From Escherichia phage LF82-41, in sequence record PV660463: 64,000 nt of DNA, one strand, 5' to 3'. The position numbers and the translations under genes are program-made. Positions 22,384 to 40,236 of the stretch are shown here, piece after piece. The notes under the pieces are model-generated. The model did not search any database. It saw only the letters and a program-made list of their open reading frames with translations, and was not told the origin of the DNA. Position 1 is the stretch's first letter; each line of letters starts with the position of its first letter.

Positions 22384-22905
22384 TTAATAACCTCGGTCTT
22401 GACGTGCGAAGTTTTCAGCATTTTTCAGGTAATACAGTTTAAAGATTTCTTCTGCAGTAAGTCCAAGGCCTTGGAACATATTCAGAACAAAGTGGAGGAT
22501 ATCAATCATCTCAAATTTAATTTCAAGCTGGTCTTCAGGAGACAGTTCATCGATACGACGATTTCGATATTCAGCATGGTGTGCTTTCCATGGCTTCCAT
22601 ACAGAGCTAGCGGCTTTTTCACCGTTGGACATACCACCAAGTGAAGTCAGCAGTTCACGGAATTCATCATCAATATAATCTTTCTGATTACGCAGCCAAT
22701 CAACAACATCACCGGCAGTAGCCAATTCATCAGGATGTTTGTTATGTTCAGGCTTGTCATTTGCCAGACGAACCTGTAAAGATTTCTGCATATCAAGCAT
22801 TACCTGCAGTGGGTCTTTATCTTCGTGAATCAGAGCATTAAAATAAGCTTCTTCTGCTTTATCAACACCAGAAATAAGTTGTGAACATTCGTTAAAGTGT
22901 GCCAT
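22384..22905 (-). CDS. 56: dCTP pyrophosphatase (dCTPase, MazG-like)
   Basis: about 173 aa from Met at 22905; T4 gp56 size and position between soc and 61. Confidence 0.8.
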   Translation of the reverse strand: MAHFNECSQLISGVDKAEEAYFNALIHEDKDPLQVMLDMQKSLQVRLANDKPEHNKHPDELATAGDVVDWLRNQKDYIDDEFRELLTSLGGMSNGEKAASSVWKPWKAHHAEYRNRRIDELSPEDQLEIKFEMIDILHFVLNMFQGLGLTAEEIFKLYYLKNAENFARQDRGY

Positions 22906-22993
22906 TATTTTTCCTTTCAATTCAGTATAAGAGAGTTAATTCTAACATTAATTTTATAAAGCGTAATAAATAATAGGTAACTAAGGAGATATT

Positions 22994-29328: not shown

Positions 29329-29670
29329 TTAAAAGAATTTAAATTTTTTCTTGGTTCGTTCATTAAAAGCTTGTTGTACTTGCATTGTAACACATTTTTC
29401 AACATGTGGTGCAAGTTCTGCTTTTCTGTCCTGGTCAAGAACTGCAAAGTCCATTACGATTTTACCATCAACCCAGTCTAGTTTTGTAATATAGACTATA
29501 TGATGGGAACCGTCTTCAAGTGTAATCAGAATCTCTTGAATGACATTTTCCATTGCTGAACGGACAATTTTAAGAGATTCATTAAACACTCGTTCTTTGC
29601 GAATGTCCTCCCCTTCCGAAGAAGGGGATTCATCAACGATTTCTAGATTTAAATCATCGAGATTATTCAT
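29329..29670 (-). CDS. 40: gene 40-like protein (position-based; start at internal Met)
   Basis: about 113 aa between 41 and uvsX. Confidence 0.45.
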   Translation of the reverse strand: MNNLDDLNLEIVDESPSSEGEDIRKERVFNESLKIVRSAMENVIQEILITLEDGSHHIVYITKLDWVDGKIVMDFAVLDQDRKAELAPHVEKCVTMQVQQAFNERTKKKFKFF

Positions 29671-30835
29671 CGAAATCTTCCATTTCGTCAAGGTCGTTTT
29701 CAATATCTGCTGCAGACGGAGCATCAGAAGCTTTAACAGGAACTTTAGTTGTTGCTTTGCAATTAATAAGGTCGTTAACAGCGTCATCAACTTCTTTAAT
29801 AGAAGAGATAGCACCTAGTTTATATTTAGTTTCAATTGCATCTCGGAAAGGTTTGTGTTTAAACAACGGTCCCCAGAATTCTACACAATCAGTAGCTTTA
29901 GCACGCCACGATTTCTCTTCACGAATCATTTCGCCTGTTTCTTCGTCAAGGAATTCACGAGCATACCAACCGGCTTTAGGCTTAACAACAAATCCAATTT
30001 CAGTTGCCATTTCTAACAAGCCACTGAATGGGTCGATACCACCATCAAAATTAACTGTGATTGGGAAAGTAGATTTCTCTTTAACTGTACGAGATTTTTC
30101 TGCTTTCAACGTGAAGTCATAACCGGTCAATTCTGTACCTTCTTTAACCTGACGTTTAGAGATAAAGAATACAGTGTTAGCAGAATAAAGAATACCTGTA
30201 CCACCGCCCATAATCTCTTTAGGATACAATCCGCCAATTTCCATTGCGGTATGGTTAATTGCAACACACGGAATATCTTTAATAGTCAGATACGGGGTCA
30301 CAATACGGAAAAGAGATTTAAGTGCCTTAGCACGAGACATATCACCTACAACTTTCTCGTTCAATGCATCTTCAGTTTCTTTCTTAGATGCAGTATTACC
30401 GATTGAATCGATAAAGATAATAACTTTATCACCGCGTTCAATCGCGTCAAGCTGATTAGTCATATCAACTTTAAGTTGTTCGACTGACTGAATTGGTGTA
30501 TGAACTACACGGTCTAAATCAACACCCATTGAACGAAAATAAGATTCTGAAGCACCAAATTCTGAATCATAGAACAAACAGATTGCATCTTTATATTTCT
30601 TCATATACGCTGCAACCATAGTTAGTCCAAACAACGTTTTAAAGTGTTTAGAAGGAGCAGCAAAAATAGTCAAGCCTGATTGCAATCCTGCATTCAGAGC
30701 ACCACCTAGTGCAATATTCAACATCGGAATACGAGTAGGGACTTCATCACGATTATTAAACAGCTTAGACTTAGTCAAGTCTGCAGTCATTTTAGAAGTA
30801 GAAGCTTTAATCAGACGAGATTTTAAATCAGACAT
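29663..30835 (-). CDS. uvsX: UvsX recombinase (RecA-like)
   Basis: 390 aa; RecA fold features; T4 UvsX size and synteny. Confidence 0.9.
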   Translation of the reverse strand: MSDLKSRLIKASTSKMTADLTKSKLFNNRDEVPTRIPMLNIALGGALNAGLQSGLTIFAAPSKHFKTLFGLTMVAAYMKKYKDAICLFYDSEFGASESYFRSMGVDLDRVVHTPIQSVEQLKVDMTNQLDAIERGDKVIIFIDSIGNTASKKETEDALNEKVVGDMSRAKALKSLFRIVTPYLTIKDIPCVAINHTAMEIGGLYPKEIMGGGTGILYSANTVFFISKRQVKEGTELTGYDFTLKAEKSRTVKEKSTFPITVNFDGGIDPFSGLLEMATEIGFVVKPKAGWYAREFLDEETGEMIREEKSWRAKATDCVEFWGPLFKHKPFRDAIETKYKLGAISSIKEVDDAVNDLINCKATTKVPVKASDAPSAADIENDLDEMEDFDE

Positions 30836-30933: not shown

Positions 30934-31482
30934 TTAACGAGCCCATTTAATGATTTCTGTAATCAAATTATTACGTTCGCTTGCATTAAATCCTATAACT
31001 TTGTTAGAACCATCATGATTAAGTAATTGATACGTTTGGATTTTGTTATGAATTGCAAACTCTTCAAAATGTGAAATGACTGTATTAAAACCGAATGAAG
31101 ACAAAGTAATAAGGTCGTCTTCAAAACTTTCAGTCATTTCGTTACGTGTTAAAATAATTGTGAACACATCATGGTTTTGGCAAAGACGAACATAATCCTG
31201 TTCATAAACGTCAAGAACCGAGTCCGCATCTTGTCGAATACGTCCATAAACCCAGTTACTAATATATCCACGGTCTAATAGATAAATCTTAGTAGGGTCT
31301 AAATAATTCAACATCGTTTCGAAACAGCCAACTTCATTTCGAGACTTAACATCGAAACGCCCATCAACTGTTCGTTTAGGGAAATCAATCTTTACATATC
31401 TTTCACTAATTTCCATTATGTCATTAATGAAAGTTGTTTTACCAGCATTATCCGGCCCGTCTACTAAAATAATTTTAGCCAT
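30934..31482 (-). CDS. P-loop kinase-like protein (182 aa)
   Basis: Walker A ILVDGPDNAGKTT at N-terminus; sits in T4 beta-gt slot. Confidence 0.55.
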   Translation of the reverse strand: MAKIILVDGPDNAGKTTFINDIMEISERYVKIDFPKRTVDGRFDVKSRNEVGCFETMLNYLDPTKIYLLDRGYISNWVYGRIRQDADSVLDVYEQDYVRLCQNHDVFTIILTRNEMTESFEDDLITLSSFGFNTVISHFEEFAIHNKIQTYQLLNHDGSNKVIGFNASERNNLITEIIKWAR

Positions 31483-31483
31483 T

Positions 31484-32383
31484 TTATTCCTCGATTACGA
31501 CATCTTCGTATTTAGGTATATTATACGGCGAAGAAATTAAAGCATTAAAGTAGATGAACTCACCAAGACCTGGATGGAATACTTCTTCAGGATTTTCGAA
31601 ATATTGAATCTTCGGACGTCCTTTAAGAATTTGATAGTACTCAGTTTTAGTTGGATTAAAAATTCGAATCAGCGCTTCTTCAGGATACTTATTTCTGTCG
31701 AAACTATTATTTGGATCAGTTATATAAAGCGGTTGACCTAATTGAATTGCGCATTCAACAACTTGTTCAAAACGATAGCATGGGTCACTAATTCGAAATG
31801 GATGAAAAATACCATCTAGATGAATAGGAGCCAAATCACCTACAAGACGCTGCATGACGGAAGGACGTATAACTTTCTGCGTTACGATAATCTTATTACC
31901 ATCTGCACCTGCGTTAACCAGCACTTCTTTTTGACGTTCATTCAACACAGTAGTTTGAAGTGAACGATTAACAGACAACATGTCGGTTTTTAAGAATTCA
32001 TCAATATAAAAACGTGGTTTATTAGGGTCTGCAGTGATATTGAAATTGAATTCTACATCAAAAGCGCCGTCATATCCAGTGATATCTGTGATTAGAAAAT
32101 CACAATCATAATAAGCAATTAATGAATCAACCACAAATTCATTTTCAGACCAAAAATATTTACGAGTATTATACGCGTTATCTTTATACCATAATGGAAC
32201 AAACTTAAATTCTGGGAAAAGACGTTCGCATTCTTTAATATCAGATGCATTACGTGGATATGTAATCACATCACCCGGATTAGCACGGTGCAAATGAAGT
32301 TGGAAGTTGCCATCCTTAAGGATAGCATACTGTCCAGTTTCATAAGACCGCATACTCAAGATAGGTACGCGGAAAATAGCCAT
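31484..32383 (-). CDS. hypothetical protein (299 aa), beta-gt slot
   Basis: ORF track; tight packing with neighbours; no motif recognised. Confidence 0.55.
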   Translation of the reverse strand: MAIFRVPILSMRSYETGQYAILKDGNFQLHLHRANPGDVITYPRNASDIKECERLFPEFKFVPLWYKDNAYNTRKYFWSENEFVVDSLIAYYDCDFLITDITGYDGAFDVEFNFNITADPNKPRFYIDEFLKTDMLSVNRSLQTTVLNERQKEVLVNAGADGNKIIVTQKVIRPSVMQRLVGDLAPIHLDGIFHPFRISDPCYRFEQVVECAIQLGQPLYITDPNNSFDRNKYPEEALIRIFNPTKTEYYQILKGRPKIQYFENPEEVFHPGLGEFIYFNALISSPYNIPKYEDVVIEE

Positions 32384-33099
32384 TAGTCAAGGAATCCTTT
32401 AACATAATCAAAATCACGTTCAAACACATGGGCACTTACCATGGTATGAGTATAATCACCAACTTCTACACCACATTCGTTAGCGATATAATGAAGTAAT
32501 TTTCCTTGGAGATAAAAATCCAACTGCATAACAACAGCACAGTTCTGGGAACGCATATGACAGTGGGTATAAAGCTTACCGTCACGAATATAATAAGTCA
32601 CTGAGTCAGTACATGGATATTCAAGCGTTTCGTCCGAATCAAGCAAAGCCTGATCAGAACTTTCTAAAATTTGGAACACAACTCTTCGAGAGTTAGGCTT
32701 CTCTTTAAGTTCTTTTAGAAGAGCCGGTAATTGGGCCGCAATGCGAGGACCATAGAAAGTGTTGAAGTTCGCCGGCAAAGCATCCGATTTTGGTTTAGAA
32801 ATAAATTTAGCGACATTAGGATATGCCTTAAACGCTTCTTCTGCATCAGTACCACCAGAAATCATAAACTTCCAGAAGTCTTCAGCATATTCATAAGAGA
32901 TGCGGTTAATACGTGGGTCGGTCATTTTGAATGATGATGGAGTGTCAACAACTACTGTCATAGACCCAATTTCATTACAACGTCCAATACGAGAATCAGT
33001 TACGAATTCTGGGTTTTCTAAAATTTCACGATTGACTGCTTTAAATGCGGATTGAAAATCTGCGGCTTTGATATATTTCATTGTGTTATGTTTTCCCAT
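32383..33099 (-). CDS. thymidylate synthase-family pyrimidine hydroxymethylase-like enzyme (divergent gp42-like)
   Basis: 238 aa; NSRRVVFQI and EYPCTDSVTYYIRDGKLYTHCHMRSQNCAVV align with T4 gp42 DSRRGIMIY / FMCTNTVQYLIRDKKINAVVNMRSND. Confidence 0.65.
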   Translation of the reverse strand: MGKHNTMKYIKAADFQSAFKAVNREILENPEFVTDSRIGRCNEIGSMTVVVDTPSSFKMTDPRINRISYEYAEDFWKFMISGGTDAEEAFKAYPNVAKFISKPKSDALPANFNTFYGPRIAAQLPALLKELKEKPNSRRVVFQILESSDQALLDSDETLEYPCTDSVTYYIRDGKLYTHCHMRSQNCAVVMQLDFYLQGKLLHYIANECGVEVGDYTHTMVSAHVFERDFDYVKGFLD

Positions 33100-33141: not shown

Positions 33142-33381
33142 TTATTTGAATTTCTTGGCAATGTTGGTATACCGTAAAGCTTCAGCATCGATACTTCCAA
33201 GAACACTGTGAAGAAATGCATCAGCGTAGTATTCCAATCGAACAGGTTCTTTAATCATTTTAGCCGCTTTGGTTTCAAACAGGCCCATAAGGGCCTTTTT
33301 AAGAATTTGTTCGCTGCTGTTAATTTTTATAGTCAAAATCTCTTCGTTAAGTTGGTGGTTAAAAGTTTTTCTAGAAATCAT
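33142..33381 (-). CDS. hypothetical protein (79 aa)
   Basis: ORF track. Confidence 0.45.
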   Translation of the reverse strand: MISRKTFNHQLNEEILTIKINSSEQILKKALMGLFETKAAKMIKEPVRLEYYADAFLHSVLGSIDAEALRYTNIAKKFK

Positions 33382-34538
33382 TCTGGGTACCTCAAAGCGT
33401 CATCAGAGTTAGTTATATCAATAATAGATATAGAGTTTTCTGCTAACCCGTTTTTAGATAACTGACGTTTATAATATCTTTCACAATATGTACACGTCGT
33501 CCCACAGATTTCATTAGCACAATCGAAATCTGGATGTCTGAACCACCTTTTTTCTAAAAAGCCATCTAACAAAGAGGTTTCAATATTTACTGTATGTGAA
33601 AACTCAGTTTCATTTTCAAGAGTGAAAATAGTCTCTAAAGGCTTCCACAGTTCTAACAAATTACCTTCAAACTTTTCAGAAGCGTATGCTTCAAGAACTT
33701 TCAAAATGTAGTCTGTGCTACCTGTACGTCCTGAAACTTTGAATTGAGTGATACCAATATCATTATAAAGTTTCAAATCTTGAGGACGAACAAAACGAGT
33801 TCTCAACCAGTTAAATGGGTCTGTATCACGAGCTTTAATACAGTGCTGCATAGGATACCCATTTAAGGATTTAGCATCATCAGCGGTAACATCAGTACTA
33901 TGGAAAATATAGCAAGAGTCACGATAACTACAATGTGTTGTATACCCTTTACCAGCATTAGAACAGAACTCATTTACAAGAACTTCAAATATTATATTGT
34001 TCTTATTGCAAAACTCTGCTGCACGCTTCAGGAAAGAAACTGAACGGTTCTTATGAATTCCGCAACAGACCTTTTTGATGTTATATTGGTCGTGCAAGTA
34101 TTTGATTTGAGTTACAGCATCGACATGTAGAATTGTTGAAACTTCAATCTCAATATCTTTATTGACTTCACGAACAATTTCCATAACAACAGGGTTAGCG
34201 ATAGTAATACGCCATACGCCTATTGACCAAAGATACTGAACATAATCCTGAATAGCTTTCTTCTTCCACTCAACTAGTTCTCTTTTTGAACCAGGATTTA
34301 TCGTGTTGAGTGTATAGTTAAAGCAAATACCTAATTCGTTACAACGTTTAACGTAGTCTTCTAACATCTTTTTGTCAACGTCAGGAAGCCTAAAATCAGG
34401 TCTGGCTGCTACAAAAGCCATTTCTCTTGTAGAGCCATATACTTCGTTTATCAAGCTATTAGGATAAGTTTTATTGAGCTCTACGATTTTATCAAGAAGA
34501 GCTAAATCAAAATTCGTTCCGATTTTAAAAGTATTCAT
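33378..34538 (-). CDS. Cys-rich protein (386 aa), possible Fe-S/U32-like enzyme
   Basis: C-terminal C-x3-C-x3-C-x2-C (CANEICGTTCTYC); internal EFCSNAGKGYTTHCSY loosely resembles U32 signature; tentative. Confidence 0.5.
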   Translation of the reverse strand: MNTFKIGTNFDLALLDKIVELNKTYPNSLINEVYGSTREMAFVAARPDFRLPDVDKKMLEDYVKRCNELGICFNYTLNTINPGSKRELVEWKKKAIQDYVQYLWSIGVWRITIANPVVMEIVREVNKDIEIEVSTILHVDAVTQIKYLHDQYNIKKVCCGIHKNRSVSFLKRAAEFCNKNNIIFEVLVNEFCSNAGKGYTTHCSYRDSCYIFHSTDVTADDAKSLNGYPMQHCIKARDTDPFNWLRTRFVRPQDLKLYNDIGITQFKVSGRTGSTDYILKVLEAYASEKFEGNLLELWKPLETIFTLENETEFSHTVNIETSLLDGFLEKRWFRHPDFDCANEICGTTCTYCERYYKRQLSKNGLAENSISIIDITNSDDALRYPE

Positions 34539-34595
34539 TTTTTTTGCATCTCGCGTTAATTGATGCGATGGTTTTTGCAGGTCTTACTTAAATTA

Positions 34596-34997
34596 TTATA
34601 GATTCGGTTTATATGATTTAAATGTTTCGAATTCGCCTTTATTCATAAGAGCTTTGAATTCGTCAGGACGCATAGCTTTGTCGTCGATAATCCAATCATA
34701 TACTGGTTTATGTGTTAGCAAATTATGGTACTTCAAACCAATGTTTTCCAAGTTCTGAATCAGACTTGGGAGAATGTCAATTGCTATACGTCCAGGACCT
34801 ACTGACTTCATACCGCGAGCAGTGTAAAGCGTTATGGTATGCCCTGCATCATACAGGGCATTAATGGCGGTCACCATTTCGACGTCTGGTTTGAAGTTCA
34901 CGTAATCACGATTGTTATTCCACTCTGTTATACAATCATCGACATCAAAACAAAGATTAAGCATGTTTTCTACACGGTGCATTAGATTCGTTCCCAT
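34596..34997 (-). CDS. HAD-superfamily phosphatase-like protein (133 aa)
   Basis: N-terminal FDVDDCIT resembles HAD motif I. Confidence 0.5.
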   Translation of the reverse strand: MGTNLMHRVENMLNLCFDVDDCITEWNNNRDYVNFKPDVEMVTAINALYDAGHTITLYTARGMKSVGPGRIAIDILPSLIQNLENIGLKYHNLLTHKPVYDWIIDDKAMRPDEFKALMNKGEFETFKSYKPNL

Positions 34998-36667
34998 TGA
35001 TGAGTGATATCGCCACCGATTGGACGATAAGAAACACCAGTTTCTTTATCAGTTAGTACCCATTTACCAGGATTTTTTGTAATCAGAGTAGCCGTTACAG
35101 GTTCTGCTACGTCATAACTAATAGAGCCGTCTTGAAGTACACGGCCCATGTTATGTAATTGCTTAGTCAGAAGTTCCATACCTTTATAATATGCGGCTAC
35201 CGCTTTAAGTGGATTATTCTTGAAATAACCACCTAATGCAATCCAGATAATTGCTACAGCCAAATGATGATACTCGTTAAACGAACTCATCTTTCCATAT
35301 TTGTAAACTAATGGATTGATGTTAATAGTCACATTACAAGTTGTTTCATCAATAGTAAACTGTCCCCAGGTCGGATTAGCATTGAATTCATCATAACCTG
35401 AAACAGCATAAAGCACTTTAGCTTCATCATATAATTTTGGCCCGTAAATCTTGGTTTCACCAAAATATCCACGAGGGTCGATAAACTTGACTTCGCCGTT
35501 ATCAGTAATCATAGTATTACTGAAGTTTGGGTCGCCGTGAATAACAGAGTACTGTCCCTGAGAACGGTTATGATAACGAATAAGATGTTCTAAAGCTTGT
35601 TTCAACATTGGCTTCAGACGTCCAATCTTAGTGTAGTTCACGTGTGTGATTTTACCAAATGAATCAATCAATGGCTGAATGCTTTCACAACGATCAATAA
35701 CTTTCGTATAGAACTCTTTAGTGAAATCACGGCGAACAGTTTCAGGACTTACAAAATAAGTGTCTGTGCTGAATTTCAGTGCATCTAAAATTGCATCAAC
35801 AATTTGTGGACGAGCAAGACTTGATTTGGATTTAATATATTCAAATGCCGGCTTACCTTTAATACGTTCCATTTCAAAATTATTTTCATTTACCGAAACT
35901 AACTGTGGAACTGAATCTGATTTCACTTTCAAATACCACGAAATCTCATCTTTCTGAAGAGCCCGTCCCTGTTCGGTTAATGCGAATTTAGTTACAGTTT
36001 CTTCACCAATTTCAACTGCATTAAAACTACGATTAAGTTCACGAACTTCATGAGCTTTTTCAAGTTTAGGCATATCACCTAAATCAATTATATTCATAAG
36101 CTCTGATTTATTGAATGCGCCGCTGTAAAGGAATTCTACGAAATCACGTCCTTTGCAGTATTCATGAATTTCCTCATCAGTAGAACCCATATAGAATTCC
36201 CAGTCTTTGAACTGATAAATTCCTACAACATTACCACCTGTTGAACCTACGTTAGTGATATTTTCACCGTCGAAATTATATCGACATTCGTCACCCTTAA
36301 CATAGATTGCGTTAACATTCCAAGACCATGAACCAAAATCAGGAATAATATCGCACCAGTTAACAACTACGTTATGGCCGTCTAAATCTTTATGTAATTT
36401 AGCAAGAGCATAAGCAGAACCATACGCTTCATCAACTGTACGAATAGTCACATTGAACCCTTCTTGCTCACAATAAGCTCGAACGGTTTCAGCAAATTTT
36501 GAATGAACTACTACAATAATTTCATCTGCGCCAAGGTCAGAATAAATTGTATACAAATTGCTCAGAATAGTGTCTTGTTTATAGTTAACAAGCACCTTAG
36601 GAATATGGTGAGTAATTGGATATAAACGAGTTGCTAATCCAGCACCAAGAATAACAGCTTTTTTCAT
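34982..36667 (-). CDS. bifunctional sugar-phosphate nucleotidyltransferase / APH-like kinase
   Basis: 561 aa; N-terminal MKKAVILGAGLATRLYP...PKVLV NTP-transferase signature; C-terminal VIHGDPNFSNTMITDNGEVKFIDPRGYFG kinase motif. Confidence 0.65.
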   Translation of the reverse strand: MKKAVILGAGLATRLYPITHHIPKVLVNYKQDTILSNLYTIYSDLGADEIIVVVHSKFAETVRAYCEQEGFNVTIRTVDEAYGSAYALAKLHKDLDGHNVVVNWCDIIPDFGSWSWNVNAIYVKGDECRYNFDGENITNVGSTGGNVVGIYQFKDWEFYMGSTDEEIHEYCKGRDFVEFLYSGAFNKSELMNIIDLGDMPKLEKAHEVRELNRSFNAVEIGEETVTKFALTEQGRALQKDEISWYLKVKSDSVPQLVSVNENNFEMERIKGKPAFEYIKSKSSLARPQIVDAILDALKFSTDTYFVSPETVRRDFTKEFYTKVIDRCESIQPLIDSFGKITHVNYTKIGRLKPMLKQALEHLIRYHNRSQGQYSVIHGDPNFSNTMITDNGEVKFIDPRGYFGETKIYGPKLYDEAKVLYAVSGYDEFNANPTWGQFTIDETTCNVTININPLVYKYGKMSSFNEYHHLAVAIIWIALGGYFKNNPLKAVAAYYKGMELLTKQLHNMGRVLQDGSISYDVAEPVTATLITKNPGKWVLTDKETGVSYRPIGGDITHQWERI

Positions 36668-36708: not shown

Positions 36709-36852
36709 CTAGTTAAAGCATTCATACTTTGCCTGTAGACCAATCATAATCCATCCAATTACAAGTGTTGGAATCATTACCGGAGCCGTTAAGCTCCAGT
36801 AGATAGTCATGACAAGCATCAATAGTAAAAGTCCTATTGTTATTGCTTTCAT
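36709..36852 (-). CDS. small membrane protein (47 aa)
   Basis: Manual translation MKAITIGLLLLMLVMTIYWSLTAPVMIPTLVIGWIMIGLQAKYECFN; ATGA overlap with SIS gene stop. Confidence 0.35.
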   Translation of the reverse strand: MKAITIGLLLLMLVMTIYWSLTAPVMIPTLVIGWIMIGLQAKYECFN

Positions 36853-37484
36853 TGCTCGCCTCGTAACATGGCACCTAGTGCACCGCCTGGATGGAACTTA
36901 AGGAAATCATTAGAGGTAAATCCACGTTCAGATGAAAGGTTGATAGCGAACGTATCGATAAGCGCTAACAACAATGTAGTAGACATCGTCGGAGCTAAAG
37001 AGTTCTCGTCAACTTCTACCGCGATACCGGTACAGAACGTATAATCAAAAAGAGCTTCGTATTCTTGTGGAATGTCAGGGTTACAATGTAACAGAATCTG
37101 TTTAACCTGAGGACGAATCATACGAAGATGTTTAGCAACACCTATCATTTCTTCAGTCTTACCGGAACGACTGATGTGAACTAATACATCATTAGGTGCA
37201 ATAAATCCTGCGTCACCATGAGAATAATGCCCAGTGTTCAAATACATGCTAGGAATACCTAGTGAAGCAAATGTCTCAGAAGCTTTAGTTGCAATATTAG
37301 CATTCTTACCAACACCTGTAATAATTACTCGGCTTTCATAATTACTCAGTCCAGGGCGTCGAAGAGTTTCTAGAATAGCATTATAACGAGCAGGGTTTTG
37401 ACTAATTACTTTGGCCATAGCGGCCAAAGAAGAAGCTTGTTTTATGATTGCGTCAATAGCGATAGTAATAGGAGTAGTTTTCAT
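36849..37484 (-). CDS. SIS-domain sugar-phosphate isomerase (arabinose-5-phosphate isomerase-like)
   Basis: 211 aa; SIS features; C-terminal FHPGGALG resembles KdsD/KpsF-type API motif. Confidence 0.6.
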   Translation of the reverse strand: MKTTPITIAIDAIIKQASSLAAMAKVISQNPARYNAILETLRRPGLSNYESRVIITGVGKNANIATKASETFASLGIPSMYLNTGHYSHGDAGFIAPNDVLVHISRSGKTEEMIGVAKHLRMIRPQVKQILLHCNPDIPQEYEALFDYTFCTGIAVEVDENSLAPTMSTTLLLALIDTFAINLSSERGFTSNDFLKFHPGGALGAMLRGEQ

Positions 37485-37524: not shown

Positions 37525-40236
37525 TCAAAAATCAAACATATCGAACAGAGATGCTTTCTTCTCGTAATCGAGTTTCGCTGCTGATGTGAATCCTTCAAGT
37601 GGTTTAATAAATGTCTTCTCAAGGAGAACAGTGTAGTCCATCCAATGAAGTACGTCGTCTTTAATTAAATCTGTGATTTCAGTACCAGAAGGCCATGCGA
37701 TACATTTATCACCGAACGGGTTTCCTTCACGTAAAGGCAGAACATATACTTTTTCACCTTCTACAACTTGTGGAGCATCAATATTACCTTTGATAGCTCG
37801 GTTATATGTCAGAATTCCACGAATATGGAACGGGCATTTGGGACCAGGGAATCCACCTACATCATATTTAGCAATGTTATTCGCAGAAGATACCGACGCG
37901 ATGCTAATATAATTCAATTGACGGAATTCTTTTTCAAACTCTTTAAAATATTCTTGTAATGATTCTTCACCTTCCTGAAGCATACGACGAATACATTCCT
38001 TAAGAGCTTTCTGTACTGCTTTAGGAGTCGAAGATTTCTGAGTCTCTAGACCCATGATTTTGAGTTTAGGCTCAGCGTAACGAGTACCTTCCATATCCCA
38101 CACGTTTAATGCATAACGTTTCTTACCAGTCCAGAATCCGCCAATACCTTTAGAACCAAGCGGAGGACCAGCGATAGCTTCTCGGTCCATGAACATTAAG
38201 TGTTGTTTATTGTTCATGTATTCACACATTTCACGGAAACCTTTATCAATAGCTGGTTCCATACGTTCACGTGCGAACTTATCTAAGAAGTCTACCCAAT
38301 GGTTGGTATCACGGAATTTAGATTCACCAACCTTATCGATAATTTTATCAGCAGATACGTAAATAGAGTCTGTATCACCATAAAGAACGAAAGCTTCACC
38401 TTCTGTACCACAAACTTCATTCAGATATTCATTAACTTTACGTTCAATCCACTGTAAAGCCATTTGACCAAATGTTGTGATTGCAGTAGCATTACGCAAA
38501 TCATAATAACGGAACCAAACGTTACCAAGTGCACCATAAAGCGAGTTGATGAGCAATTTACGGTTAATTTGTGCAGTCATACCTGCAACTTCAGTACGTT
38601 GAGCTCTAAACAACATTTCATTAAGAGATTTAGCAGACAACTTTTTAATCTTTTCTTTAATCTCATCGCTGAAGTCGAAACGATAATCAACATCTAATGG
38701 TTCGTCAACAGAAAGATTAGGATTATGCAATGCCTCTTTAATTATTTCACCATTACGTTGAGCTGCAAGCATGTAACCTTTATGTTCTTTACGTTGATTA
38801 AAGACCTTAGTGATTTCAGTTGGAACTACACCATCACGGTCTTTATAATACATCATGCCGTTAGGAGAGCAACTGTACACATCTGAAGGACGTTCAGCGA
38901 TTGCGTTAATATAATCATGCAGTGGAGCTACTTTAAACGTTCCTGCTATTGTTTCCGGGCTAATATTCACTTGGCGAATAATACTTGGATACAGGGATGT
39001 AAGGTCGAAACTCATTACATATTTGTATCGATTTGGAATAGGTTCCTTAACAAAAGCACCTGGATAAGGTTGAACCGGGTGAGAACGACCTTGTGGAATC
39101 ACCTTGCTCTGCTCTTTAAGGCTATTAAAAATAATAGCATCCCATGTTTTAATTGGGCTAAACACAGATTGAATCTGTATCTTAGCATAATAACCCATGT
39201 CCAAACTCAAGTTGATGAACTGACGCTTAGCATCAATTTGCAATACACGATACACGTCGATAATGTTATAAGAAATATACCGTTGGTGATTGCTTTCACG
39301 AAGCTTAGAAATAGGGCCGTCATATTTCAGTTTACCAACATTCAATTCAAATTCTGAAATGTAATCCAGAGAATACGACGGTTGATTGGTAAAAGAGAAT
39401 TTTTTGTAAAGGTCAATGTAATCAAGAACAGAGATACCGAACATTGTAATGATTTCACGAGAACCATACATGTTTTCGATAACTTTAACACGAGTTTTAC
39501 GATGTGGTGATAAACGTTTCGCAGTAGATTCGCCAAAAATATTCTTGATTCGGTTATACACATATGGAATATCAAATGACTCAACGTTCCATCCAGTCAA
39601 AATGACAGGAGTTTTCTGTTGCCAGAAGTTGAGATATTCCATCAACAATTCTTTTTCGTTATCGAACGGCATATAAATGATTTTATCGATAATTTCAGAT
39701 GGAACTTCATCACCGCCTTGTTCTTGAAGCTTAGCCGCAATTTCGATAGACCATTCTTCTACATTACCATACGGAGAATTCAATAGATCAAATACGTAGA
39801 ACCTGTCGTCAATTGAGTCATAATGGGTGATAGCATCAATCGGATGTTTTGCTTGTGACGGCTCAGGGAACCCATCCGGAGATGTTACTTCGATGTCGAA
39901 GTTAGCCACACGAATTTTTGTATGGTCGTATTTGATTTCATAGTTATAAGTGTCAGACAAATACGCCAATTTGAAATCGTCCATGCCAAGTGCTTCAAGT
40001 CCGATATCTTCCATGCGTTTAATCCATTGGGAGGCATCACGCATATTAGCGAACAACTTACGAGTACACGGTTTACCGTAGATATCGAAATATTTCGTAG
40101 CCTGACTTTCTGGACAATGAGCAAACAGTGATGGTTTATATTCTACTTCACGAGTACGTTCACGGCCATTAGAATCGATGTAACGTTCAAAAATTGAATC
40201 ACCAATCTGTTCAACCGTTAAGTAAAATTCTTTCAT
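37525..40236 (-). CDS. 43: DNA polymerase (family B)
   Basis: 903 aa; exo motifs (FDIE), pol motifs (SLYPS, YGDTDS); T4 gp43 size and synteny. Confidence 0.95.
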   Translation of the reverse strand: MKEFYLTVEQIGDSIFERYIDSNGRERTREVEYKPSLFAHCPESQATKYFDIYGKPCTRKLFANMRDASQWIKRMEDIGLEALGMDDFKLAYLSDTYNYEIKYDHTKIRVANFDIEVTSPDGFPEPSQAKHPIDAITHYDSIDDRFYVFDLLNSPYGNVEEWSIEIAAKLQEQGGDEVPSEIIDKIIYMPFDNEKELLMEYLNFWQQKTPVILTGWNVESFDIPYVYNRIKNIFGESTAKRLSPHRKTRVKVIENMYGSREIITMFGISVLDYIDLYKKFSFTNQPSYSLDYISEFELNVGKLKYDGPISKLRESNHQRYISYNIIDVYRVLQIDAKRQFINLSLDMGYYAKIQIQSVFSPIKTWDAIIFNSLKEQSKVIPQGRSHPVQPYPGAFVKEPIPNRYKYVMSFDLTSLYPSIIRQVNISPETIAGTFKVAPLHDYINAIAERPSDVYSCSPNGMMYYKDRDGVVPTEITKVFNQRKEHKGYMLAAQRNGEIIKEALHNPNLSVDEPLDVDYRFDFSDEIKEKIKKLSAKSLNEMLFRAQRTEVAGMTAQINRKLLINSLYGALGNVWFRYYDLRNATAITTFGQMALQWIERKVNEYLNEVCGTEGEAFVLYGDTDSIYVSADKIIDKVGESKFRDTNHWVDFLDKFARERMEPAIDKGFREMCEYMNNKQHLMFMDREAIAGPPLGSKGIGGFWTGKKRYALNVWDMEGTRYAEPKLKIMGLETQKSSTPKAVQKALKECIRRMLQEGEESLQEYFKEFEKEFRQLNYISIASVSSANNIAKYDVGGFPGPKCPFHIRGILTYNRAIKGNIDAPQVVEGEKVYVLPLREGNPFGDKCIAWPSGTEITDLIKDDVLHWMDYTVLLEKTFIKPLEGFTSAAKLDYEKKASLFDMFDF

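Follow-up and report, generated by a model that had tools for sequence, protein, structure and literature searches.

The window analyzed here (64,000 nt of Escherichia phage LF82-41, sequence record PV660463) belongs to a T4-type phage of the RB69 group (Mosigvirus) and carries on its minus strand a gene for a U32-family protein of 386 aa (33378–34538; ATG start; Pfam PF01136). The open reading frame (ORF) and its coordinates are exactly those singled out by the original prediction, which had described a cysteine-rich protein of possible iron–sulfur (Fe–S) or U32-like character. The protein is the ortholog of RB69 gp50 and a candidate Fe–S, prephenate-dependent hydroxylase encoded within a DNA-modification cluster. 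The 6.6 kb around the ORF showed 97.5–98% nucleotide identity to many Escherichia/Shigella phage genomes (Mosigvirus), and the protein itself was 99.5–100% identical to RB69 gp50 (RB69p050, NP_861740.1) and its Mosigvirus orthologs, which occupy the same slot of the gp45–gp55 cluster. All codon differences between the U32 gene and those of two Mosigvirus relatives were synonymous (17 of 17 and 16 of 16), indicating that the gene is under strong purifying selection.

Every gene between 30.9 and 37.5 kb lies on the minus strand, flanked by uvsX (29663–30835) and DNA polymerase (37525–40236). In the order of transcription, this region encodes an arabinose-5-phosphate isomerase (gp55; 36849–37484; Pfam SIS, phrog_5670), a 47-aa hydrophobic ORF, a bifunctional nucleotidyltransferase/kinase fusion for UDP-arabinose (gp52:53, AfhE-like; 34982–36667; Pfam NTP_transferase and kinase-like matches), a HAD phosphatase (gp51, AfhF-like; 34596–34997; phrog_1238), the U32 protein, the helical 79-aa gp49 (33142–33381), whose ATG overlaps the U32 stop (ATGA), a thymidylate synthase (TS) homolog orthologous to RB69 gp48 (32383–33099; Pfam Thymidylat_synt), an arabinosyltransferase 1 candidate orthologous to RB69 gp46:47 and here a single ORF (31484–32383; phrog_3891), and a thymidylate-kinase-like nucleotide kinase orthologous to gp45 (30934–31482; phrog_761). 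Read in reverse, from uvsX to the DNA polymerase, this is the gene order of the RB69-like arabinosyl-5-hydroxycytosine cluster. The functions given for the gp48, gp51 and gp52:53 orthologs follow PMC13326640, and those of the arabinosyltransferase and kinase its Table 1. As described in that paper, the cluster makes arabinosylated 5-hydroxycytosine DNA in RB69, with gp48 producing 5-hydroxy-deoxycytidine monophosphate (5-hydroxy-dCMP) by means of a flavin and O2 as established by 18O2 labelling, UDP-arabinose accounted for by the isomerase, AfhE-like and AfhF-like proteins, and unmodified dC absent from the DNA. A dCTP pyrophosphatase (dCTPase) homolog is encoded elsewhere in the window (22384–22920, minus strand), detected by tblastn with a Thanatos-1 dCTPase fragment (66% identity, E = 1e-44).

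Membership of the U32 family was evident from the Pfam Peptidase_U32 model, which matched residues 94–286 (E = 7.3e-11; 42.2 bits against a gathering cutoff of 22.4), and PF01136 was carried by every listed homolog having a precomputed Pfam match. A structural comparison, one of the checks first proposed for this protein, gave a (beta/alpha)8 barrel like that of 5D88, the sole solved U32 member. A PDB sequence search with protein and profile queries returned nothing relevant, and when the family profile was aligned with hhalign to individual E. coli U32 proteins, the matches were weak (probability 6–19%) and confined to the N-terminal half; U32 membership is therefore based on the Pfam match and the fold. 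A profile search of 1.84 billion representatives retrieved 494 proteins at E ≤ 1e-30 and 1714 at E ≤ 1e-3, mostly near full length among the matches listed, indicating a distinct and moderately large U32 subfamily. The UbiU equivalog model NF047963 scored 18.5 bits against a cutoff of 440, and no second U32 or SCP2 (UbiT-like) protein was found among the eight neighboring genes. The extended architecture of RlhA and TrhP (453–653 aa) was also not found, PF01136 being the sole match in the 386-aa protein, and the alignment with RlhA and TrhP spans the barrel only. GenBank records name the protein a peptidase, a collagenase-like protease or a "putative enzyme involved in UDP-arabinose biosynthesis". 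We regard a true collagenase-type peptidase as very improbable, although many of these records, the name of PF01136 and a phrog_5757 match (annotated "peptidase") point that way, as characterized members with conserved Cys motifs are Fe–S hydroxylases (PMC6747719, PMC11574389) and neither protease substrate nor morphogenesis genes were present in the context.

Compared with the 68 window ORFs of at least 100 aa, the U32 protein has the highest number of Cys (13) and the third-highest Cys fraction (3.4%, against a mean of 1.26%), in keeping with the Cys-rich character first noted. Nine Cys (C158, C192, C203, C209, C233, C340, C345, C349 and C352) are invariant in 111 homologs of 47–87% identity. 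Four of these form a barrel set, C192-x10-C203-x5-C209-x23-C233 (33840–33965, minus strand), which is presumed to be a [4Fe-4S] site. In an alignment with E. coli UbiU, UbiV, RlhA and TrhP and more distant relatives, C192, C203 and C233 aligned with UbiU C169, C176 and C232, three of the four [4Fe-4S] ligands established by experiment for that protein (PMC6747719). A first MAFFT alignment, in which the first two canonical Cys were matched by C203 and C209, was superseded by the alignment with the more distant relatives, which places C192 and C203 there. In 132 distant representatives (mutually more than 50% different) C192 and C233 were retained in 98–100%, and the position of C209 was Cys or His in 83%; C209, which is His in relatives of 27–30% identity, is a candidate for the replacement fourth ligand on the basis of this alignment. 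The stretch E185..C192..C203..C209 is a diverged U32 signature region within the 42.2-bit Pfam match, as the original prediction had suspected of an internal Cys segment. In Clostridia genomes (L082, L083, L084, L087) the relatives of 27–30% identity, with the conserved His at C209, often occur as two tandem U32 paralogs, reminiscent of the UbiU–UbiV and TrhP1–TrhP2 heterodimers.

A second set, C340-x4-C345-x3-C349-x2-C352 (33483–33521, minus strand), is invariant in the 111 homologs, was retained in 83–88% of the 132 distant representatives, and is a candidate second metal or Fe–S site. Its conservation is far above chance. This is the C-terminal cluster reported in the original prediction, which was right about its existence and wrong about its spacing (x3-x3-x2). 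The cluster is present in the relatives of 27–30% identity and not in UbiU, UbiV, RlhA or TrhP, and is specific to this U32 subfamily. A radical SAM protein was considered, as C345-x3-C349-x2-C352 reads CX3CX2C, and was rejected, with no PF04055 match at E ≤ 0.1 and the motif C-terminal and outside the barrel. The Pfam match, the fold and the conserved Cys thus lend support, at the level of sequence and fold comparison, to the cautious U32 and Fe–S assignment with which the locus had been flagged.

Outside Mosigvirus, most related phages carry a chorismate mutase (CM) gene directly downstream of U32. In Enterobacter phage Entb_45, where successive genes overlap by 4 nt, a 79-aa ORF overlapping the U32 stop matched Pfam CM_2 (40.9 bits; gathering cutoff 27) and many NCBIfam CM models, and in an alignment it retained equivalents of the E. 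coli CM (1ECM) residues R11, R28, K39, E52, S84 and Q88. A tblastn search with this CM matched 51 phage records, with hosts in Klebsiella, Serratia, Yersinia, Enterobacter, Edwardsiella, Erwinia, Pectobacterium, Kosakonia, Morganella, Providencia, Shewanella and E. coli (phage EcS1), and diverged copies were detected in Proteus phages with a hidden Markov model (HMM). The CM gene lay within about 350 nt downstream of U32 in all 15 phages present among the matches listed for both genes, and Thanatos-1 has a rearranged order (TS homolog, glycosyltransferase, kinase, U32, CM), yet with the U32–CM pair intact. A third layout was seen in Klebsiella phage Clarke_MM3 (L018) and in L020, in which the TS homolog comes directly after U32, CM and gp49 are both absent, and the kinase lies upstream of U32.

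The same linkage extended to non-T4 viruses. CM adjoined U32 in 11 of 33 non-T4 viral contigs (U32 40–55% identical), and four, possibly five, of these 11 carried a DAHP synthase–CM fusion, the fifth being an L059 DAHP synthase-type copy with a weak C-terminal CM match. DAHP synthase-type genes were found 3' of U32 in viral contigs L033 and L059 and in metagenome contig L014, and were matched by DAHP synthase models at 1e-38 to 1e-70 compared to 1e-12 to 1e-19 for KDO8P synthase. Among bacterial genome loci, 4 of 23 had CM beside U32, and when the Pfam families of 85 genes lying no more than two positions from U32 were counted, Thymidylate_kin (6), DAHP_synth_1 (5) and CM_2 (4) ranked among the top ones. 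The product of chorismate mutase is prephenate. Known U32 enzymes use this metabolite, as the oxygen donor in UbiU/V and as a genetic requirement for TrhP and RlhA (PMC10990095, PMC11574389), and the simplest reading of the linkage is that this U32 subfamily would consume prephenate too.

In the window phage, the slot that holds CM in related phages is occupied by gp49, homologs of which were found directly downstream of U32 only, in Mosigvirus, PM2, Yersinia phages and L034. Its AF2 model contained three helices only and had a pLDDT of 63, too weak for a fold search. Codon changes against two Mosigvirus relatives were mainly nonsynonymous (6 of 8 and 8 of 14), with an amino-acid difference of 7.5–10% compared to 0% for U32, and some relatives have a shortened form of about 50 aa. 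A degenerate CM was considered for gp49 and rejected: there was no Pfam or NCBIfam match at E ≤ 10 (CM_2 included), BLASTP returned nothing, hhalign against phage CM gave a probability of 0.3%, and gp49 and CM occur together in PM2, TG1, fHe-Yen9 and L034. The protein could be an accessory subunit or the product of a decaying gene.

Several further features were observed in and around these genes. Upstream of the U32 start are a −10/−35-like pair (TTTAAA-16-TATAAT; 34622–34595) and a hairpin with a 7-bp stem (34551–34568), and a run of eight A directly precedes the ATG; some GenBank records set the start of the coding sequence 9–12 nt further upstream. A promoter and terminator scan of 30.8–37.6 kb gave no excess over shuffled expectation. 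The gp46/47 and gp52/53 genes, split in the RB69 reference, are uninterrupted ORFs here (31484–32383, 299 aa; 34982–36667, 561 aa), in agreement with the published view that sequencing errors account for the splits in NC_004928. The strongly hydrophobic 47-aa ORF between the isomerase and AfhE-like genes (36709–36852) keeps its position in RB69 (orf054c), Bas47 and Serratia phage LC53, where it is annotated as transmembrane.

The genes surrounding U32 were compared across T4-like loci and across non-T4 loci, the latter over flanks of 6–10 kb, with an HMM that included E. coli ThyA for the TS search. A TS homolog was beside U32 in 15 of 15 T4-like loci, with U32 always just upstream, either adjacent or separated by only CM and/or gp49. 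By contrast, a TS homolog was found within these flanks in 1 of 33 non-T4 viral loci, 0 of 5 metagenome loci and 0 of 23 genome loci. The constant position 5' of the TS homolog, together with the 4-nt gene overlaps in Entb_45 and the two conserved Cys clusters, is what would be expected of a redox partner of gp48, namely an Fe–S electron-transfer protein or flavin reductase keeping the flavin of the TS-like hydroxylase reduced. This role is improbable in our judgment, as RB69 gp48 and the kinase suffice for 5-hydroxydeoxycytidine (5hodC) in E. coli according to PMC13326640, most non-T4 loci have U32 with no TS homolog nearby, and the linkage to CM would be left unexplained.

In most non-T4 viral loci, U32 stood alongside DNA glycosyltransferase, kinase or NDP-arabinose genes. 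Viral locus L017 has the order gp45-like kinase, gp46-like glycosyltransferase, U32, TET-associated glycosyltransferase (TAGT, PF20691), dUTPase, with a DNA polymerase, a second glycosyltransferase and a UDP-galactopyranose mutase further downstream. Metagenome contig L014 has a glycosyltransferase followed by SIS, AfhE-like, U32 and DAHP synthase genes, and in five loci (L036, L040, L046, L050, L063) the ORF map showed a gp46-like glycosyltransferase immediately 5' of U32, preceded by a gene of 168–183 aa. A glycosyltransferase needs a base hydroxyl, and U32 is the sole candidate provider seen in these loci. In L017 and L041, TAGT, further glycosyltransferases, dUTPase and UDP-galactopyranose mutase flank U32, and the locus contains neither a TET/JBP nor a TS homolog, which suggests O2-independent formation of a galactofuranosylated hydroxypyrimidine.

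Other contigs had no sugar genes. In megaphage-like contigs a dCMP deaminase gene was followed by U32, near thymidylate kinase and UDG, and in a Bacillota contig U32 occurred with NT5C, dNK, a PnuC-type transporter and a deoxyribosyltransferase. The Bacillota metagenome-assembled genome (MAG) contigs L002, L003 and L070 (approximately 7–17 kb of L002) encode U32 and a second U32 paralog (22% identical) together with NT5C, a deoxynucleoside kinase, a nucleoside deoxyribosyltransferase and a PnuC-type transporter, as well as a methyltransferase, an AlaRS-like protein and a radical SAM/SPASM protein; this cluster looks like a modified-deoxynucleoside synthesis or salvage pathway in a cellulolytic anaerobe. 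Across all U32 contexts, deoxynucleotide metabolism recurs more consistently than arabinose.

A rival reading is a role in the sugar branch, with U32 acting as an oxidoreductase on arabinose phosphate or NDP-arabinose. The arabinose label in GenBank and that of "sugar or heterocycle reductase" in Table 1 of PMC13326640 would fit such a role, as would the location of U32 between the HAD phosphatase and the TS homolog and the presence of SIS and AfhE-like genes within 5 kb of U32 in about 14 of the 33 non-T4 viral loci. The steps from ribulose 5-phosphate to UDP-Araf are, however, already covered by the isomerase, AfhE and AfhF, and the pathway runs in DLP3, Maestro and JS98, all without U32. 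RB69 DNA carries its arabinose in plain form and the portions of PMC13326640 consulted mention no redox change to it, no characterized U32 member has a sugar substrate, and U32 is also found away from sugar genes, beside dCMP deaminase or dNK/NT5C. A sugar substrate would also leave the CM and DAHP synthase linkage unexplained, and we therefore consider it unlikely.

For a cytosine substrate, the stage of modification has to be considered. As dCTPase removes dCTP and RB69 DNA holds no unmodified dC, modification of cytosine should precede incorporation, and together with the TS-less glycosylation loci and the deoxynucleotide contexts this favors dCMP as the substrate. Hydroxylation of cytosine within DNA after replication, in the fashion of TET/JBP, would match L017 and L041, where U32 is followed by TAGT at the usual place of TET/JBP, and the polynucleotide substrates of RlhA and TrhP. 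We nevertheless think it improbable, since little cytosine would reach the DNA given the dCTPase in the window and the RB69 DNA composition described in PMC13326640, many loci pair U32 with a dedicated thymidylate-kinase-like kinase, and the protein has no nucleic-acid-binding extension. An RNA hydroxylase similar to TrhP or RlhA, forming ho5U in tRNA or ho5C in rRNA and tuning translation during infection, could be supposed from the facts that every pyrimidine C5 hydroxylation so far ascribed to a U32 protein is on RNA (PMC10990095, PMC11574389) and that the product of RlhA is 5-hydroxycytidine. This is more improbable again: the match is to the U32 domain only, RlhA (653 aa) and TrhP (453 aa) having C-terminal regions that the phage protein lacks, the window contains zero tRNA genes, and the gene is consistently found within DNA-modification or deoxynucleotide gene sets.

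The distribution of U32 was also compared with oxygen lifestyle. Beyond phages of enterobacteria and Shewanella, the placeable taxa of the genome matches are gut or sediment anaerobes, including Erysipelotrichales, Oscillospiraceae, Romboutsia, Lachnospiraceae, Phocaeicola, Tannerella, Gastranaerophilaceae, Ruminiclostridium, Cellulosilyticum and Desulfobacteraceae; the other genome matches are uncultured MAGs (Planctomycetota, BRC1, Woesearchaeota). Acinetobacter is a strict aerobe. The AfhE-like arabinose enzyme occurred in 366 phage records, 57 of them from Acinetobacter phages, compared to 221 phage records for U32, with zero from Acinetobacter phages. A strict correlation between U32 and host oxygen lifestyle holds only partly, as the gene is absent from Acinetobacter phages but from Dhakaviruses too. 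The E. coli Dhakaviruses (e.g., JS98) have a TS homolog and neither U32 nor CM, so that U32 is an accessory rather than a core gene and is not required for the modification as such. This accessory status is compatible with a conditional anoxic role and is not proof of one.

The reading we favor, which we hold to be about as probable as its negation, is that the U32 protein is an O2-independent, prephenate-dependent C5 hydroxylase of dCMP and the anaerobic counterpart of gp48. It would be a U32 "oxidase" with one or two Fe–S clusters, of the enzyme kind of RlhA, TrhP and UbiU/UbiV, and would hydroxylate a cytosine nucleotide, most likely dCMP, at C5 with oxygen taken from prephenate and not from O2. 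The resulting 5-hydroxy-dCMP would then be phosphorylated, built into DNA and arabinosylated. There would thus be two routes to one base, with gp48 (flavin/O2) serving under oxic conditions and U32 under anoxic conditions, e.g., in the gut, much as the host pairs TrhO with TrhP and UbiI,H,F with UbiU,V. With gp48 dependent on O2 and dCTP destroyed, a phage under anoxia would be left with no cytosine nucleotide for its DNA, a problem that a prephenate-dependent U32 enzyme would solve. The other readings are all less well supported than a dCMP hydroxylase. What the analysis established directly is the family, the fold, the conserved Cys, the purifying selection and the gene context, whereas the binding of Fe–S clusters, the use of prephenate, the substrate and the anaerobic role are inferred.

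A number of observations weigh on the other side. The position of the fourth UbiU ligand, C193, is held by Asp (D221) in the phage protein, and the canonical spacing CX6CX15CX3/4C (CX6CX16CX38C in UbiU) is not kept, the phage spacing being CX10CX5CX23C. The window phage has no CM of its own; in a search of the window, the best HMM match (E = 0.004) consisted of two fragments near 18.8 kb on the minus strand, probably a helical protein hit by chance, so that this phage would rely on the host PheA and TyrA for prephenate. The absence of a TS homolog at non-T4 loci applies to the 6–10 kb around U32, and the co-occurrence of U32 with the arabinose genes SIS and AfhE makes the context compatible with a sugar-related role. 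JS98 infects a gut facultative anaerobe, yet manages without U32 and CM. Finally, no biochemical or genetic test of the U32 protein was found in the literature consulted.

More broadly, and more tentatively, at somewhat under even confidence, the U32 subfamily may represent the first O2-independent, prephenate-dependent DNA-precursor hydroxylase. In viruses of strict anaerobes it would be the sole route to a pyrimidine hydroxyl for glycosylation, replacing the TS-like flavin enzyme or TET/JBP and in some cases accompanied by a DAHP synthase–CM for supply of the oxygen donor, while enterobacterial T4-like phages would keep both routes for oxic and anoxic niches. The 5-hydroxycytosine route of these phages was recently shown to depend on O2, yet they infect gut bacteria and destroy dCTP. 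If the U32 enzyme is prephenate-dependent as proposed, the chemistry of U32 "oxidases" would be extended from RNA and quinones to DNA precursors, and viral CM and DAHP synthase genes would have a reason. It would also provide the field, in which no in vitro reconstitution of U32 hydroxylase activity had been achieved as of the 2024 papers, with a small, soluble, single-chain enzyme acting on a simple substrate. Phages with and without the gene would then differ in O2-dependent DNA modification and hence in sensitivity to host defence, which could matter for phage therapy and engineering.

RB69 gp50 (99.5% identical) is in sequence terms the same protein as that of the window, and its designation as "sugar or heterocycle reductase" in a table of PMC13326640 (RB69p050) is structure-based, derived from a match to 5D88, and is the sole functional label found in print; the gene is not discussed there, and where the discussion brings up the RlhA and TrhP pathways it regards them as unrelated to the phage system. 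Neither Thomas et al. (2018) nor the Thanatos paper deals with the U32 gene, and full-text searches found no paper linking U32 or CM to RB69-type phages.

Among characterized systems, E. coli RlhA (YdcP), the 23S rRNA 5-hydroxycytidine C2501 synthase, shares the U32 domain, and its chemistry is identical to that proposed here, namely O2-independent, prephenate-linked hydroxylation of cytosine at C5. RlhA differs in acting on RNA and in its 653 aa, C-terminal extensions and canonical CX6CX15CX3C motif, compared to the 386 aa, CX10CX5CX23C and additional C-terminal four-Cys cluster of the phage protein. E. coli TrhP (YegQ) and TrhO likewise form an O2-independent/O2-dependent pair for one hydroxylated pyrimidine (ho5U34), one member being a prephenate-dependent U32 protein; their substrate is tRNA, however, and the aerobic partner TrhO is rhodanese-type whereas the phage partner is a flavin-dependent TS homolog. 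UbiU/UbiV are Fe–S, prephenate-dependent U32 proteins, and three of the four UbiU ligands match invariant phage Cys. The UbiU/UbiV heterodimer has two clusters, while the phage protein may carry two on one chain; the substrate of UbiU/UbiV is a quinone precursor, and the phage cluster has no partner U32 or UbiT-like gene. The phage 5hodCMP synthase (RB69 gp48, DLP3 gp80) has the same proposed product and is encoded near U32 in the same orientation in T4-like phages, but has an unrelated fold and cofactors and, by 18O2 labelling, a need for O2. Finally, TET/JBP and TAGT modules follow the same logic, in that an oxidizing enzyme creates a pyrimidine hydroxyl which an adjacent glycosyltransferase decorates, and U32 adjoins TAGT in L017 and L041; TET/JBP enzymes are unrelated to U32, use O2 and 2-oxoglutarate and target 5mC in DNA.

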